Below are positions 37,884 through 48,476 of a stretch of DNA of 64,000 nt, one piece after another. The stretch comes from a virus. The translations under genes and the position numbers were made by a program. How positions within the stretch are numbered: position 1 is the first letter of the stretch; each line of letters begins with the position of its first letter. Below the pieces are notes generated by a model, which made no database searches, was not told the DNA's origin, and saw only the letters and a list, made by a program, of their open reading frames with translations. The stretch is taken from the IMG/VR virus record IMGVR_UViG_3300002091_000031, positions 973 to 64,972 of that record; one strand, 5' to 3'.

Positions 37884-38139
37884 GGATTTACGAACTGACA
37901 TTTACCTTTATTGTAAAGCTAATGACATAACGGATTATGATGCCTTTATGATTAAATGTATGCGTCAGGGATTTACAATTGAAAAATTTGGTGTTGCACC
38001 ACAAATAGGTAATAAGAAGGTTGAAACAATTAGCGTTGAGCCTGTTGTTGAATCTATTTCAGAACCTAAAATTGAAGAGGTTAAGGTACCCGAAAAAAAG
38101 AAAAATCAAAAACCGAATACAAACATTTATGGAGAATAA
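37870..38139 (+). CDS. Hypothetical protein (start moved to MEIPKD at 37870)
   Basis: Overlap-coupled on both sides. Confidence 0.6.
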   Translation: MEIPKDLRTDIYLYCKANDITDYDAFMIKCMRQGFTIEKFGVAPQIGNKKVETISVEPVVESISEPKIEEVKVPEKKKNQKPNTNIYGE

Positions 38140-40480
38140 ATTTAACATGTCGCCCTACTCAAGAATTAAGGTGTATTGGGATGATAAACCAGAGAATTAT
38201 AGTAAAGAAGCTAAGAGTAGAATTAAGACTCATTTTAGTAAAAAGTATGGTGTAAATAAGAATAATGTTGATGTTATCTATCGGCCAGTAAAGTTTACCA
38301 ATACTGGTGATGTTATTGAAATTACTGGTGCTAACATTGATAATATAATGGATACTTCTTATCAGCGTGAGTTGATGAAGGAGTGGATTAAGCGTGAAAA
38401 CAAAAATGTTAATTTTGAAAGATTAATAACGCTTGACGATAAAGTCAATGCCGAACTAAATGTTGAAGATAGTCAATCTAATCATAATAGTTGGTCAATC
38501 AAATGGCTTTCAATTAACAATTTTCTATCATTTGGTGAAAATAACTATGTTCCTTTCAATAAATTAAGAGGACTTACTGTTGTTAATTCAATACCAACTA
38601 ATCAAGGTGGTAAAACAACCCTTACAATTGACGCTATTAAATTTTTACTTCATGGTAGTACTACTAAGACTGAAAAAAACGAACAAATTTTTAATACCTA
38701 TTCTGATAAGAATGAATTATTAGTTCGTGGTATGATTGAATTGGATGGTCAAGATGTTATTATCGAAAGAAAGATGAAACGTACCGCTAAGAAGGGTGGT
38801 GATTGGAATGTAACTAATAAAGTTAATTATTATGAAATATTACCTGATGGTGAGGAAAGTCAAATGAACGAGGAAGATGCCAGTAGGACCACAGCTAAAT
38901 TAAAAGCAACCATTGGTAGTGAAAAGGATTTTGAGATGCTTGTATTAGCAACTGAAAAAAACCTAGAAGACCTTATCGGTTTAACTACTAGTGAGAGTGG
39001 TAAAATATTAACTAGATTAATTGGTTTAGAAGTAATTGAAACTAAGGAAGCTATTGTTAGGAAAATGTATAATGAATTCGATAGAAAGAAGAAATCTAAC
39101 GATTATGATGTCCTTACTCTTACTCAAGAAATCGAAGACCATAACGAAAAAATAACTAACGGAAAAGATATTGAATTAACTCTTCTCAATAGACTAGATG
39201 AGGTTAAAAATGATATTGAAAACTTGAAAATTGAGAATGATAGGTTACTTAATAGTAAGATTTCAATTGATGTTGTTATTAGTGCGTTAAACCCATCTAA
39301 ACTAGAAACTGAGATAAAGGATATTATTACTAATGGTACTGGCTTAAAGGAAAAAATTAAAGAATTAAATGAAACTATTAGTGGAATTGGTGTAATAAAC
39401 TTTGATGAAGACCTTCATCATAGATTAACCGCTGAAAATAACCAAATAATGGTTTCGTTAGGTGGTAAAAGAGCTGAAATTAAGCGTTTAGAGAGTACTA
39501 TTAAGGATTTAGTTGAGGGTGGCATTTGTAAGGCTTGTAATCGTAAATTAGATGACGTTGATAATACTGAACATATTGCAACACATCGTAAAATGATTAC
39601 AATTCTTGAAGCTGATATAGAAAAGATAACACTTCGCCAGACTGATGTACAAGAAGAATTAAGTGGTTTAAATGAAACTAAGCGTTTAGTTGACGTTAAG
39701 AATAGAACTGAGTTGGATAGAGATAGACTTGAAGTTGAGGTTGGGTCATTAAGAAATAAAGTTTTAGCTAAACAAAATGACTTAAATAAGTATAAGCTTA
39801 ATGCCGAAGCTATTGAATTTAATCGGACTGTTGATTCCGAGGTATCAATGGTTAAAACAAAACTTACAGTTGCTGACTACAGTAAGGATGATATTCAACT
39901 TAAAATTCAAAAGATAAAGACTGATATTCAAAATAATAAGACCGCTACTGAAACAAAGACTAAATTAATTGAACAAATTAAGAAGGAAGAAGAAATCGAG
40001 AAAATATTCAAGGTCTATATTGAATTAGTAGGTAAAAAGGGTATTAGTAAGTTAGTTTTAAGGTCAGTACTACCAATTATTAATGCTGAGGTAATTAGAT
40101 TACTTGATGAGTGTTGTGATTTCGAAATCGAGATATTTATAGATGATAAGAATGATGTACAATTTTTAATTAATAAGGATGGTGTATCTAAATTGTTAAA
40201 GTCTGGTAGTGGGTTTGAAAAGACGGCCTCCAGCTTAGCTCTTAGAAGCGTTTTAGGTAAAATTTCTAATTTACCAATGCCTAACTTTATAACATTTGAT
40301 GAAATCTTAGGTAAAGTATCTAATGAAAACATTGAAAAATTGAAACCATTGTTTGATAAAATTAAAGGAATGTATGAGATTGTTTTCTTAATTACCCACA
40401 ATGATATAATAAAAGATTGGGGTGACAATATTGTTACAGTACTTAAACCCGATAACATATCAAGTGTAAGAATTAAATAA
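38129..40480 (+). CDS. sbcC: SbcC/Rad50/gp46-like SMC ATPase with an extra N-terminal domain
   Basis: INNFLSFG, Walker A NQGGKTT, coiled coil with CKAC hook, SGSGFE signature, FDE and ITH; start MENKF at 38129. Confidence 0.9.
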   Translation: MENKFNMSPYSRIKVYWDDKPENYSKEAKSRIKTHFSKKYGVNKNNVDVIYRPVKFTNTGDVIEITGANIDNIMDTSYQRELMKEWIKRENKNVNFERLITLDDKVNAELNVEDSQSNHNSWSIKWLSINNFLSFGENNYVPFNKLRGLTVVNSIPTNQGGKTTLTIDAIKFLLHGSTTKTEKNEQIFNTYSDKNELLVRGMIELDGQDVIIERKMKRTAKKGGDWNVTNKVNYYEILPDGEESQMNEEDASRTTAKLKATIGSEKDFEMLVLATEKNLEDLIGLTTSESGKILTRLIGLEVIETKEAIVRKMYNEFDRKKKSNDYDVLTLTQEIEDHNEKITNGKDIELTLLNRLDEVKNDIENLKIENDRLLNSKISIDVVISALNPSKLETEIKDIITNGTGLKEKIKELNETISGIGVINFDEDLHHRLTAENNQIMVSLGGKRAEIKRLESTIKDLVEGGICKACNRKLDDVDNTEHIATHRKMITILEADIEKITLRQTDVQEELSGLNETKRLVDVKNRTELDRDRLEVEVGSLRNKVLAKQNDLNKYKLNAEAIEFNRTVDSEVSMVKTKLTVADYSKDDIQLKIQKIKTDIQNNKTATETKTKLIEQIKKEEEIEKIFKVYIELVGKKGISKLVLRSVLPIINAEVIRLLDECCDFEIEIFIDDKNDVQFLINKDGVSKLLKSGSGFEKTASSLALRSVLGKISNLPMPNFITFDEILGKVSNENIEKLKPLFDKIKGMYEIVFLITHNDIIKDWGDNIVTVLKPDNISSVRIK

Positions 40481-40525
40481 TTTTTATATTTGGCTAGTAT
40501 ATCGTATATTTGCAAAAAAAATGAG

Positions 40526-41038: not shown

Positions 41039-41054
41039 AAATGGCAGAAAAAAC

Positions 41055-41084
41055 TTGACTTTTGCCATTTTTTTCGTATATTTG
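41055..41084 (+). promoter_or_regulatory. Bacteroidota-type promoter for the sigma factor
   Basis: TTG-N19-TATATTTG. Confidence 0.75.
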
Positions 41085-41127
41085 TATATCCAATGGATAA
41101 TAACAGCTGCGGTAATATGAAAAATGA

Positions 41128-41958
41128 ATGGTTAACAAATTTGTAAATTTTGAAGAAGAAGAAAGTCTAGTAAAGTATTTTAAAGATGTAAGAAAGACAA
41201 CCCTATTAACACCCGATGAGGAAGTTGATTTGGCGTTAAGAATAAAAACGGGTGATACCGATGCTGTTGAAACCTTAGTACAAGCTAACTTAAAGTTTGT
41301 CGTCTCAATAGCTAAAGATTATCAAAATCAAGGGTTACCATTAGCTGATTTAATTAGTGAAGGTAATTATGGTTTAGTAAAGGCCGCATCAAGATTTGAC
41401 CATACTCGTGGTTTTAGGTTCATCTCTTATGCTGTTTGGTGGATTAAGCAATCAATTATTCAAAGTTTAAATGAAAACGCTAGAATGGTACGTTTACCAG
41501 CAAATGTAATTAATAAGTTACATTCACTAAAGAAAGAAATAGAGAAGTTCGAATTTGAAAATGAACGTGAGCCAATTTATGGTGAAATATTAGACGATAA
41601 TATGGAACCAGTTGACTTAATGAATTATTCAGTTTGTACATCATTAAATGATAAGATAAATGAGGATGGCGATGAACTAATCGACCTAATTTCAGATAAA
41701 TCTGATGATGAGGATAAATTAGTTGTTGATGAACGATTAAAAGCTGAATTGGCTGAAACTTTATCAATATTGGATAATAGAGAGCGAGTAATTATTGAAT
41801 CTTATTTTGGTATTAATACTGAATGTGAACCAATGACTCTTGAAGCTATTGGTGAAAATTTTTCACTTACCAAAGAACGTATTAGACAAATTAAAGAAAA
41901 AGCTTTAAGAAAACTTAGGCATAACGCACACAACTTATACAATTTGATAAATGAATAA
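41128..41958 (+). CDS. Phage-encoded sigma70-family factor resembling the Bacteroidota primary sigma (regions 1.2-4, no 1.1)
   Basis: ANLKFVVSIAKDYQNQGLPLADLISEGN, RFISYAVWWIKQSI, and region 4 TLEAIGENFSLTKERIRQIKEKAL. Confidence 0.93.
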   Translation: MVNKFVNFEEEESLVKYFKDVRKTTLLTPDEEVDLALRIKTGDTDAVETLVQANLKFVVSIAKDYQNQGLPLADLISEGNYGLVKAASRFDHTRGFRFISYAVWWIKQSIIQSLNENARMVRLPANVINKLHSLKKEIEKFEFENEREPIYGEILDDNMEPVDLMNYSVCTSLNDKINEDGDELIDLISDKSDDEDKLVVDERLKAELAETLSILDNRERVIIESYFGINTECEPMTLEAIGENFSLTKERIRQIKEKALRKLRHNAHNLYNLINE

Positions 41959-42155
41959 TATTAATTGGTTTTTAAATAACGTAATTAATTCCGTTAAACG
42001 TGGTAGAATTGATAATAGAGCTTGGAAAAATTTATTTTTAATTATAGATTGTGAAATAATTAAAACAGTTATTAACGATAACATAAACCATCTAAAAGGT
42101 TTAATAAACCTTAAGCATAACGCACACAACTTATATAACTTGATAAACGAATAAT
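41911..42155 (+). repeat. 49-nt direct repeat (41911-41959 and 42107-42155, 44/49 identical)
   Basis: Both copies encode HNAHNLYNLINE followed by a stop codon. Confidence 0.95.
41951..42154 (+). CDS. 67-aa ORF sharing its last 12 residues with the sigma factor
   Basis: Starts inside the sigma 3' end; TAATG-coupled to the next gene. Confidence 0.55.
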   Translation: MNNINWFLNNVINSVKRGRIDNRAWKNLFLIIDCEIIKTVINDNINHLKGLINLKHNAHNLYNLINE

Positions 42156-43443
42156 GAAACTAAAATTTAGCGCATTAGTAGCTCTTGCCGCTACCCTTGT
42201 AGCTGGTTGTGCCGCATATTACTCAGTATTCGGTCTTAGTCAATTATTTGCTGGTGCTAGTGTTGCCGTTGTTATTATGGCCACTAGTTTAGAATTCAGT
42301 AAAGTCATTGCGGTTAGTCTACTTGAAAAATATTGGAACCAATTAGGTAAGTCATTACGACTTTATTTAATTGTTGGCGTTACTATTTTAGTATGCATTA
42401 CATCAGCAGGTATTTATGGTTTTCTTTCAAATGCTTACCAAAAAACGGCTTCTAATCTTGAAGTCAGTGAGGCTGCTATTAATGTCTTAACTAATAAGAA
42501 AAGCTTGTTTGAAAAGGGGATAGCCGATAATCAGAAAATTATTGATTTAAAGACTACTAGACTATCCCAATTATCATCGTTACGTACCCTTCAAGAAGGG
42601 CGAATAGATGCAGCTAAGGGTAACTCAAGCCAAGGTCATGCTAGAGCTGATATTGATGCATCGTCTAAGGAAGTTCAGACCTTAAATAGCGAGATTGATA
42701 AGATAAATAGTAAAAATAGCGTATTAGCTGATTCTGTTAACTATTACGCTAACAAAGCCATTGAAACTAAGGCTAAGGGTAACTCAACAAGTGAAATCGG
42801 TCCATTAAAATACTTAGCTCAATTGACTGGTTATCCAATGGATAAAATAATCAATTGGTTTATTCTTTTACTAATTTTTGTATTTGACCCATTAGCGGTT
42901 GCTCTAGTTATTGCTACTAATAAAGTTCTTGAGATTGAAAGGCGAGAAAAGAATACCGTAATAAGTGACCCTGAGACGGACACTGATGTTAATGATGATT
43001 ATGGTGATGAAGATGTTGAAGCACCTGAATTTGAATGGCATCCAATGCCGCCAACTAAAGGTGCTGAGCTAATAAGAGAAATTGAAGCTCACGAACCAGA
43101 GGTTTCTAGCTCAAATATTGAACTATCTGAGCCAGAACCAATAATATCTGAGCCAGAACCTAGTTTATCTGTTGAAGAACATTTAAGTAAGATTCAAGAC
43201 GAAGAGGTTGAAAATATACGTGAAATTACTAATAATATCTTAGTTGAGGAACCAGTAATTGAACCAGTAATTGAACCAACAATTGAACCAACTCAATCAC
43301 AACAAAGGGGACCAGTTATACCTAATGGTAGAATTGAGTTAGATGATATTAGAGAAAAACGAGGGTTTGTTGGTAGCATTCCAACGAATAATGTTCAAAG
43401 AGTTAACTCTAAGAACAGGTATGGTGGTTACTTTAAACGTTAA
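42154..43443 (+). CDS. Membrane protein (N-terminal TM helices, coiled coil, TM, acidic Pro/Glu tail)
   Basis: Hydropathy pattern; EP(V/T)I repeats. Confidence 0.75.
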   Translation: MKLKFSALVALAATLVAGCAAYYSVFGLSQLFAGASVAVVIMATSLEFSKVIAVSLLEKYWNQLGKSLRLYLIVGVTILVCITSAGIYGFLSNAYQKTASNLEVSEAAINVLTNKKSLFEKGIADNQKIIDLKTTRLSQLSSLRTLQEGRIDAAKGNSSQGHARADIDASSKEVQTLNSEIDKINSKNSVLADSVNYYANKAIETKAKGNSTSEIGPLKYLAQLTGYPMDKIINWFILLLIFVFDPLAVALVIATNKVLEIERREKNTVISDPETDTDVNDDYGDEDVEAPEFEWHPMPPTKGAELIREIEAHEPEVSSSNIELSEPEPIISEPEPSLSVEEHLSKIQDEEVENIREITNNILVEEPVIEPVIEPTIEPTQSQQRGPVIPNGRIELDDIREKRGFVGSIPTNNVQRVNSKNRYGGYFKR

Positions 43444-47051: not shown

Positions 47052-48476
47052 ATGGATAAAAAGATTATAAAAGACCACTTAACTCAAACCTTCATATCTG
47101 AAGCAAAAGATAGTAAGAAAAAAGTTGATAACGGTAAAGCAAATAAGGATGGTGTAGCTGCAATAGAAAAGGATGTTAAGGCTTTCGAAAAGAATGTTAA
47201 AAAGAAAGACCCTGACGCTAAGACTATGGGACCAAACAAATTTAATTTTAACTCAACCGCCGAAAAGGAGAACCATGATGAAATGGAAACTCTAAATGGT
47301 ATGGAGATGCTTCAGTATGACAGAGAACCAGACGATTTATATAAGAAAAGAGCATTAGAGGGAATTGAAGGTAGTAGTAAAATGGGTAATAACCCAGAAT
47401 GGGCTAATGTTGTAGCTAAAGGCCAAGGCGGTGACCCAGATTTCGGTAAGAATTTAGTTAAGAGAATTAAATCTTCTGCTAAGAAGCGTTCTGAAGAAAC
47501 TCCAACATTCTATATGCATGGTAAGGATAATAGTGTTGAAATGAAAGACACTGGCCATAAACCTTATGCACTTGAAAGCGTTAATAATAATTCAAACTCA
47601 TTACCTACAAAAGATGTGGTAAATGAAAATAAAACACAAAAACAAACTATGAAAAGACTTAAATTTAAAAAAGAGTTTAACGGTGTAGGTAATGCACTTA
47701 AATTAATACCTGAAGCTTATAGAGAAGATAACAAGGTATTCCAAATGACTGACGGTAACGAATCATATACTATTCGTTGGGAAGGTTCACTTACAGAAGG
47801 TAGTGCTGTAGTTCTTTCTGCATCTGATAAAACTCTTATCAATGAAGATGTTCAAAAAATGAAACACTTATTCAATTACAAATCAGAAACAACTCTTGGT
47901 TTGGTTAAAGGTAAGGATAGAGTTAATGAAGATACTTCATTTGCTGATATTTGGGCTAAATCAAAGAAATTGTTGGGTGAATCTGAAGATATTGAAGGTC
48001 AAACAGCTGAAGAAGGCGAATGGGATGACGCTGGTATAACACAATCACCAGATGCTAAGAAACATATCCAAGGTTCAGTATCAACTGAGAAAGGAACAGT
48101 AGCACCAGCACCAAAGAACGGTGAATGGGATAAGATAAAAATCTCTCAATCTTCTGACGCTAAGAAGCATGTACAAGGTTCAGTATCAACTGATAAAGGA
48201 ACAGTAGCACCAGCACCAAAAGAAGGTCATTGGGATAAGATAAAAATTCATGCAGCTGCTAATCCAACAGGTGGATTAGGTGGTAGTACACCAAAGGCTA
48301 CAGCTACAGAAACTAAACCAGATAACAAGAAGTCTCAAGCTCCAGAAGCTAAGAAGCATGTACAAGGTTCAGTATCTAGCGATAAAGGAACAGTAGCTCC
48401 AGCAGCAAAAAATGGTGAATGGGATAAGATAAAGAAGAAAGCTCCAGAGGCAACAAAGGATATAAAAAATAAATAA
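47052..48476 (+). CDS. Charged protein with C-terminal 35-aa repeats, possible head-internal protein
   Basis: TATTTATA at 47032-47039; many (L/I/V)xE motifs. Confidence 0.7.
   Translation: MDKKIIKDHLTQTFISEAKDSKKKVDNGKANKDGVAAIEKDVKAFEKNVKKKDPDAKTMGPNKFNFNSTAEKENHDEMETLNGMEMLQYDREPDDLYKKRALEGIEGSSKMGNNPEWANVVAKGQGGDPDFGKNLVKRIKSSAKKRSEETPTFYMHGKDNSVEMKDTGHKPYALESVNNNSNSLPTKDVVNENKTQKQTMKRLKFKKEFNGVGNALKLIPEAYREDNKVFQMTDGNESYTIRWEGSLTEGSAVVLSASDKTLINEDVQKMKHLFNYKSETTLGLVKGKDRVNEDTSFADIWAKSKKLLGESEDIEGQTAEEGEWDDAGITQSPDAKKHIQGSVSTEKGTVAPAPKNGEWDKIKISQSSDAKKHVQGSVSTDKGTVAPAPKEGHWDKIKIHAAANPTGGLGGSTPKATATETKPDNKKSQAPEAKKHVQGSVSSDKGTVAPAAKNGEWDKIKKKAPEATKDIKNK
48054..48434 (+). repeat. Three coding repeats (units start at 48054, 48159 and 48348)
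   Basis: AKKH(I/V)QGSVS(T/S)(E/D)KGTVAPA(P/A)K(N/E)G(E/H)WDKIK. Confidence 0.9.

Follow-up and report, generated by a model that had tools for sequence, protein, structure and literature searches.

A duplicated sigma-factor tail, probably an insertion scar that now ends a small conserved gene, at an endonuclease-invaded junction of freshwater jumbo phages

The DNA considered here is a stretch of 64,000 nucleotides (nt), hereafter the window (positions 973 to 64,972 of the IMG/VR virus record IMGVR_UViG_3300002091_000031), and the source record is a large-phage fragment that is about 18% complete according to the database estimate. The locus in question comprises three genes of the + strand which are tightly packed head to tail. 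The first (41128-41958) encodes a phage sigma70-family factor of 276 amino acids, the second (41951-42154) is a small open reading frame (ORF) of 67 codons, referred to here as ORF67, and the third (42154-43443) encodes a membrane protein of 429 amino acids that belongs to no family and in relatives stands directly behind the sigma gene. The start of ORF67 overlaps the sigma stop codon (ATGAATAA) and its own stop overlaps the ATG of the membrane gene (TAATG). The sigma gene product contains the Pfam domains Sigma70_r1_2, r2 and r4, all above their cut-offs, and matches phrog_351 ('RNA polymerase sigma factor', E-value 9e-58). Its C-terminal 85 amino acids align to region 4 of RpoD/SigA in solved structures up to KALRKLRHNAHNLY, i.e., through KALRKLRH, and judging by this alignment the protein ends in the usual manner of a group-1-like sigma factor.

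The sigma gene and ORF67 share their 3' ends, which form a direct repeat of 62 nt (41898-41959 versus 42094-42155, 55/62 identical, 196 nt from start to start), and there is no second repeat of this type anywhere in the window. The first copy, on the + strand, is the working 3' end of the sigma gene and covers its last 20 codons (KALRKLRHNAHNLYNLINE, then the stop). The second copy, also on the + strand, appears to be a displaced sigma 3' end: it forms the C-terminus of ORF67 (codons 49-67) together with the stop codon and the start context of the membrane gene. The 134 nt of unique DNA between the copies (41960-42093, + strand) make up the orphan part of ORF67, codons 1-48. The sigma factor ends in KLRHNAHNLYNLINE and ORF67 in NLKHNAHNLYNLINE; the last 12 residues are identical. 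This identity was already pointed out in the initial annotation, which described copies of 49 nt with five differing positions, three of them, inside HNAHNLYNLINE, being synonymous third-position C/T differences (TAC/TAT, AAT/AAC and AAT/AAC). All of this is confirmed, and the repeat proves to be longer than described. Its left edge lies around ATTAAAGAAAAAGCT, at sigma codons 255-259; the first 22 nt contain four differences, all non-synonymous (KALRKLR in the sigma factor versus KGLINLK in ORF67), and the last 40 nt contain three, all synonymous.

The exact ORF67 protein is encoded on 29 contigs. Another 35 contigs encode a variant that differs by one residue, and one contig encodes a second variant. 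These contigs come from many samples and several studies and are up to 385-710 kb long, and both repeat copies are bridged, with no joint, in single contigs from three independent studies. The concern raised in the initial annotation, that the structure could be an assembly artefact with no reads spanning both copies, has thus been largely removed. That the repeat is an assembly artefact, or else arose when sigma region 4 was duplicated in tandem and later diverged, is highly improbable. Short repeats can mislead assemblers, one scaffold (L098) is interrupted by a run of N immediately upstream, and ORF67, with its 67 amino acids, is about the size of region 4. On the other side, the same structure is found again in dozens of contigs and studies that are independent of one another, identity in an ungapped comparison of the DNA preceding the repeat does not rise above background, and a profile comparison with region 4 (hhalign) aligns the tail only, residues 49-67, so that the 134 nt were rejected as a diverged duplicate of this region. 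A programmed swap of sigma C-termini between the two copies, also proposed initially, finds no support, as the last 12 residues are the same in either tail and recombination would merely delete the ORF. No deleted form is present among the contigs checked, and contigs of four runs contained no joint of a deletion between the repeats, with the limit that contigs drop rare variants. Two apparent variants of the locus were discarded as well: the shorter sigma factor of L098 reflects a scaffold gap, and an additional 67-amino-acid ORF of the L096 assembly is a fragment of an SbcC-like gene.

We compared 80 related sigma loci at the junction between the sigma and membrane genes. In the closest relative, L002, whose sigma factor is 95% identical, the site is empty: there is no ORF67, and the membrane-gene ATG overlaps the sigma stop directly (TAATG). 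The L002 junction equals the second repeat copy of the window plus the DNA downstream of it, bar one base. Most of the other relatives are empty too, with -11 to 68 nt between the sigma stop and the membrane gene. The first copy matches the L002 sigma tail at 56 of 60 positions and the second at 53 of 60. From CATAAC onward, the second copy is one position off the L002 sequence that ends the sigma gene and starts the membrane gene; within its left 22 nt, four amino acids are changed. With L002 used to polarise the changes, five fall within the first 22 nt of the second copy and a single one within the last 40 nt (Fisher p 0.018). This pattern is compatible with constraint on the last 12 residues, with conversion by the first copy or with constraint on the region of the membrane-gene start, and the sliding-window identity between the window and L002 reveals no sharp boundary of a conversion tract. 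The AAT codon at 41950-41952 in the first copy provides the A and T of the ORF67 start codon, and this ATG rests on a synonymous change in the sigma gene because L002 has AAC there.

Some relatives carry a much larger gene at the same junction. In L004 a sigma factor with a divergent tail (RNNSHNLYDLTND) is followed by an ORF of 315 amino acids and then by the membrane gene, and the last 20 residues encoded by this ORF, EKALRKLRHNAHNLYNLINE, are a relic sigma tail. The protein matches phrog_559 (E-value 1e-75) and the 'homing endonuclease' phrog_9084 (4e-25), contains DUF723 and treble-clef zinc ribbons, and belongs to a family of more than 6,600 members; by family it is a free-standing homing endonuclease. 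Its C-terminal nuclease domain is predicted to fold with high local confidence (pLDDT 93). Sequence searches of this domain against the PDB gave no match, and a Foldseek search of the model against the PDB placed 3r3p (I-Bth0305I) and 1cw0 (Vsr) among the best rows at E-values of 0.007-0.02 and a probability of 1.00, none being at or below 0.001. Residues E12, D44, E55, G58, H61 and D81 of the domain are invariant in 37 sequences. In a second lineage (contig P0092), an endonuclease of the same family, 370 amino acids long, stands directly behind a sigma gene of 275 codons and is fused to a decayed sigma tail, ending in KGLKDNTHNLYSLLND.

Further arrangements are found at this site. In L102 (1999-3265) and L103 (2352-3618), the relic sigma tail of an L004-type endonuclease is cut short (...RHNASKR) and is followed by a 117-amino-acid fragment of a second endonuclease with the nuclease domain only, which looks like nested invasion and decay at one site. 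A mirror case is provided by L010 (3892-4921), L011 and L012, where an endonuclease of the same family sits within the membrane gene at its 5' end; in front of it lies a 25-amino-acid relic of the membrane-gene N-terminus, and behind it the full gene with a divergent N-terminus. In L104-L109 the order is sigma gene with a divergent tail, endonuclease, a 67-amino-acid homologue of ORF67 ending in LLKALRKLRHNAHNLYDLINE, and membrane gene; the arrangement in the window is the same minus the endonuclease. In this lineage the ORF67 homologue and the membrane gene do not overlap and are separated by a spacer of 12 nt.

The flanks of the endonuclease genes are mosaic. The relic tail of L104 matches the sigma tail of the relative L003 at 51 of 60 positions versus 34 of 60 for the sigma tail of L104 itself, and the upstream sigma tail of L104 uses CGT arginine codons where native tails use AGA/AGG. 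The downstream tails are each closest to the sigma tail of their own genomic background. The endonuclease is patchily present, lies between conserved genes and uses the same insertion point in three lineages; this patchiness, the shared insertion point and the mosaic flanks suggest, indirectly, that the endonucleases of the junction may cleave and home. On sequence grounds, the junction is an endonuclease hot spot in related freshwater jumbo phages. It is also a general variable spot. In the more distant loci L047-L077 (sigma factors 45-48% identical) the inserts found there are unrelated, range from 175 to about 1005 nt and never have a sigma-like tail; examples are a minus-strand ORF of 125-151 amino acids beginning with MSLLRESIRKHLL and plus-strand ORFs of 179-190 amino acids.

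The small ORF itself is probably a translated gene under moderate constraint, as suggested by its comparison with a diverged relative. A phmmer search of 1.84 billion representatives found a sole relative, P0124, which is also 67 amino acids long and 54% identical over the full length without gaps (E-value 2e-14); it comes from a different phage lineage of the same sample series, where it stands between an endonuclease gene and the membrane gene. The presence of the ORF in related genomes, which the initial annotation had singled out as informative, is therefore established for one other lineage. Over the orphan codons 1-48, the proportion of non-synonymous differences (pN) between the two is 0.32 and that of synonymous differences (pS) is 0.63 (ratio 0.5, Fisher p 0.007). 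At the first, second and third codon positions the identity is 0.67, 0.73 and 0.48, respectively. The flanking genes are saturated with synonymous divergence between the two lineages (pS 0.62 for the sigma gene and 0.66 for the membrane gene). In the tail of ORF67, pN is 0.13 and pS 0.90, with 9 of 10 synonymous sites differing; the three alternatives named above for the changes polarised by L002 apply to this pattern as well. The frame of ORF67 is the only open one of six in both lineages, and, at the local composition, a run of 45 codons would lack stops by chance with a probability of about 0.016. AlphaFold2 predicts a helical hairpin (pLDDT 88), in which a first helix of residues 2-16 is joined by a short loop to a second of 45 residues that runs through the tail, and ORF67 is most likely maintained by selection as a helical protein. 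The overlaps at both of its ends most likely couple its translation to that of the sigma gene and of the membrane gene.

Searches for further relatives of ORF67 returned little. At permissive thresholds, PHROGs and Pfam gave only phrog_28998 (E-value 0.021); Foldseek found no PDB structure at E < 3, and matches in the Atlas were generic helices. No further ORF67 was found in IMG/VR and none in JGI metagenome contigs, and no longer protein shares words with it. Among the public sequencing runs listed as holding the locus, none was an RNA run. Inside the ORF, just past the sigma stop, lies an 18-nt near-palindrome (AACGTAATTAATTCCGTT, 41978-41995), which may be a protein-binding site or an AT-rich chance occurrence.

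Taken together, the repeat is best explained as the scar of an insertion into the 3' end of the sigma gene at an endonuclease-invaded junction, with the stranded tail now ending a small constrained gene, ORF67. We give this explanation a probability of about 0.72, and its central part, that the repeat is an insertion footprint, is well supported. About 196 nt would have been inserted into the sigma 3' end at its junction with the membrane gene, generating a C-terminal duplication, in a region that free-standing homing endonuclease genes with DUF723 zinc-ribbon repeats and a probably Vsr-like nuclease domain appear to invade repeatedly in related freshwater jumbo phages. The complete tail placed upstream would preserve the sigma factor and the old tail would be left stranded downstream; the target gene stays whole because the insertion duplicates its end. 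The stranded tail would then have given ORF67 its last 19 codons, its stop codon and its overlap with the membrane-gene ATG, and the overlaps mediated by ORF67 would restore the direct sigma-to-membrane coupling of the empty site. Restoration of the 3' end by an insertion was among the possibilities listed in the initial annotation, and it is essentially the one that the empty site of L002 and the endonuclease-occupied sites of other relatives support.

The same scenario offers an explanation for the synonymous differences between the copies. Since the downstream tails track the sigma tail of their own background, both copies would descend from functional sigma ends, and because of this descent largely synonymous differences are expected with or without selection on the ORF67 tail. 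It thus seems that the synonymous-only pattern reflects descent from working sigma tails and not selection for mimicry. For these reasons, and also because only three sites are involved, the initial argument from this pattern to peptide-level selection in the two copies is not compelling.

Several points weigh against this explanation. The window contains no endonuclease gene and no detectable remnant of one. Both of its tails look native by their similarity to L002, and the foreign upstream tail that is a hallmark of the occupied loci is missing. The small ORF could have been at the junction before the endonuclease or could have arrived with it, and either order fits. The estimate of selection on ORF67 comes from one diverged pair with saturated synonymous sites, and the population variants of ORF67, two non-synonymous and one synonymous, comprise three sites and are powerless. 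Because both tails look native and no endonuclease remnant is detectable, we put the odds that an endonuclease-linked event made this particular insertion at about even.

The 134 unique nt were compared with possible sources. Their origin as a decayed endonuclease finds no support, since a profile of the endonuclease C-terminus scores -0.1 bits against ORF67 and the full-length profile, run in six frames, scores below the shuffled mean. Local DNA alignment with eight segments of endonuclease loci gave one p of 0.037, uncorrected, the others being non-significant, and elsewhere in the window only AT-rich chance words were found.

Among the competing explanations, the one that survives best, although it is unlikely, treats ORF67 as a sigma-tail mimic or a partner of sigma region 4, whose tail helix binds region 4, the flap of the RNA polymerase or an activator and thereby modulates the holoenzyme of the host or of the phage. 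Such a function is compatible with an origin by insertion. It would account for the conservation and constraint of ORF67, for a tail protein that stays sigma-like between lineages though nearly all of its synonymous sites differ, for the position of the ORF wedged against the sigma gene with overlapping stop and start, and for the confident prediction of a helical hairpin whose long helix includes the tail. Structure prediction of ORF67 together with sigma region 4 is weakly in favour as well: the complex scores 0.54 versus 0.00 for the best of three controls, the runs agree in at least 94% of contacts and the pLDDT of the partner is at least 81. Of 80 solved complexes, 58 reach the mark that it passes, as do 2 of 110 mismatches; passes at or below 0.60, however, comprise only 7 of the 80 solved complexes and both of the passing mismatches, so that by the calibration of the tool itself a weak pass is more often wrong than right. 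The identical 19-residue helix in both chains may also drive the predicted pairing. The closest relative and most others live without ORF67, which is therefore dispensable, the basic KALRKLR motif is changed to KGLINLK in ORF67 of the window, and relics that track the sigma tail of their own genome explain the conservation of the tail equally well. The idea of a mimic or modulator, put forward in the initial annotation, stays improbable; ORF67 is conserved and under purifying selection, and the complex with region 4 passes at a level of weak support.

A combination of the two ideas, slightly less probable than a mimic as such, is that a scar left by a homing endonuclease has turned into a gene whose product, with the stranded sigma helix joined to an orphan helical hairpin, docks on sigma region 4, or on its contact with the polymerase, as a phage-encoded modulator or decoy.

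The opposite extreme, that ORF67 is a functionless scar, is a little more doubtful again. Its frame would be open through recency, or as a relay for ribosomes passing from the sigma gene to the membrane gene, with the peptide itself inert. The absence of ORF67 from the nearest and most other relatives agrees with this, as do the orphan nature of its first 48 codons, the population variants (two non-synonymous, one synonymous), and the ATGAATAA and TAATG overlaps, which reproduce the direct sigma-to-membrane coupling of L002. However, a homologue of equal length persists where the flanking genes are saturated, and non-synonymous change in the orphan part is significantly below synonymous change. 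Coupling alone also fails to explain the conservation, because in the other lineage the 12-nt spacer removes the overlap with the membrane gene.

The architecture at this junction has a counterpart in fungal mitochondria. Mobile endonuclease ORFs (mORFs) with a carboxy-terminal duplication have been described in atp6 of Allomyces macrogynus and in atp6, atp9, cox2 and nad3 of Glomus (Beaudet et al. 2013, PMC3630166, citing Paquin et al. 1994). As in L004 and L104, the insertion is at the 3' end of an essential gene, a complete C-terminus is found upstream and the native C-terminus is stranded downstream (PMC3630166). As in the loci of the relatives, the native copy most resembles the gene in a relative that lacks the endonuclease, the differences are largely synonymous and the reading frame of the inserted ORF sometimes runs on into the relic (PMC3630166). 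The window shares with the fungal mORFs the duplication itself, two copies of a 3' end of which the upstream one completes the sigma gene. Unlike the fungal cases, the target is a phage sigma gene and not an organellar gene, the endonuclease of the relatives is probably Vsr-like and not of the LAGLIDADG or GIY-YIG type, the window is without an endonuclease, and a conserved small orphan ORF has adopted the stranded tail.

The endonucleases of the relatives also resemble free-standing phage enzymes. DUF723 has been described as a DNA-binding module of phage homing endonucleases, and T5orf172 endonucleases of phage ICP1 carry CapR/DUF723 zinc-finger modules (PMC10448857); I-Bth0305I represents a Vsr-like homing endonuclease family (PMC3239194, PMC2677866). 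Like the T4 seg/mob enzymes, those of ICP1 and I-Bth0305I, the endonucleases at the sigma junction appear to combine DUF723 repeats with a nuclease domain that may be Vsr-like by its predicted fold, and they are patchily distributed between conserved genes at a mosaic boundary. In a non-exhaustive literature search we found no published account of terminal duplication of a target gene by this endonuclease family in phages. What is new here compared with the known systems is the phage sigma target, the probable Vsr-like class of the endonuclease and the small ORF that persists with the stranded tail and without the endonuclease.

If ORF67 does act on the sigma factor, the closest known parallel is AsiA of phage T4, a small phage protein that binds sigma region 4; T4 MotA contacts the far C-terminus of sigma70. 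To our knowledge, AsiA carries no copy of the sigma tail. Like AsiA-type proteins, ORF67 is predicted to be a small, all-helical phage protein, is encoded beside a sigma gene and has a weakly predicted contact with region 4. Unlike AsiA, it does carry a copy of the sigma tail, and it has no sequence or fold similarity to AsiA or to any other known anti-sigma factor.

The junction offers a series of states: the empty site, an endonuclease fused to a relic, an endonuclease with a small ORF, the small ORF alone, nested fragments and a mirror duplication at a 5' end. This series would illustrate how free-standing homing endonucleases enter an essential gene at its end and leave it functional, as in fungal mitochondria, and how the gene end left behind can come to serve as C-terminus for a new small protein. 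The consequence for annotation is that a short ORF sharing its tail with the upstream neighbour should be read first as an insertion footprint. If it is true that ORF67 binds sigma region 4, the locus would represent the de novo birth of a regulator from the displaced end of the very protein that it regulates.

A promoter-like element of the Bacteroidota -33/-7 type (CTTGAC ... CGTATATTTG) lies 5' of the sigma gene at 41054-41085 on the + strand. The pattern TTTG-N17-21-TANNTTTG recurs in the window, with 14 matches versus 4 expected, and fits the Bacteroidota consensus (TTTG ... TAnnTTTG). In the form (T/C)TTG(A/C), about 19 nt, then CGTATATTTGCA, the motif is seen at 59608-62601, 41054-41085 and about 40493-40516. 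From the sigma start to the end of the membrane gene, no promoter-like motif of this recurrent type and no terminator was found, and we infer from this that the sigma gene, ORF67 and the membrane gene are co-transcribed.

The neighbouring phage genes encode an SbcC-like nuclease subunit and an amidase. The called length of the SbcC-like gene (38021-40480 in the window) varies among the loci L083-L094 (745, 783 and 786 amino acids); in some relatives there is a faint Intein_splicing match, and the L096 assembly splits off the last 67 residues. The membrane-protein gene also varies in length within the population (425, 429, 433 and 441 amino acids in the window and L083-L100), likely as a result of its proline/glutamate-rich repeat region. 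Elsewhere in the window, at 48042-48436, a unit of 101 nt is present three times with 84-87% identity and spacings of 105 and 189 nt, presumably representing a repeated protein module.

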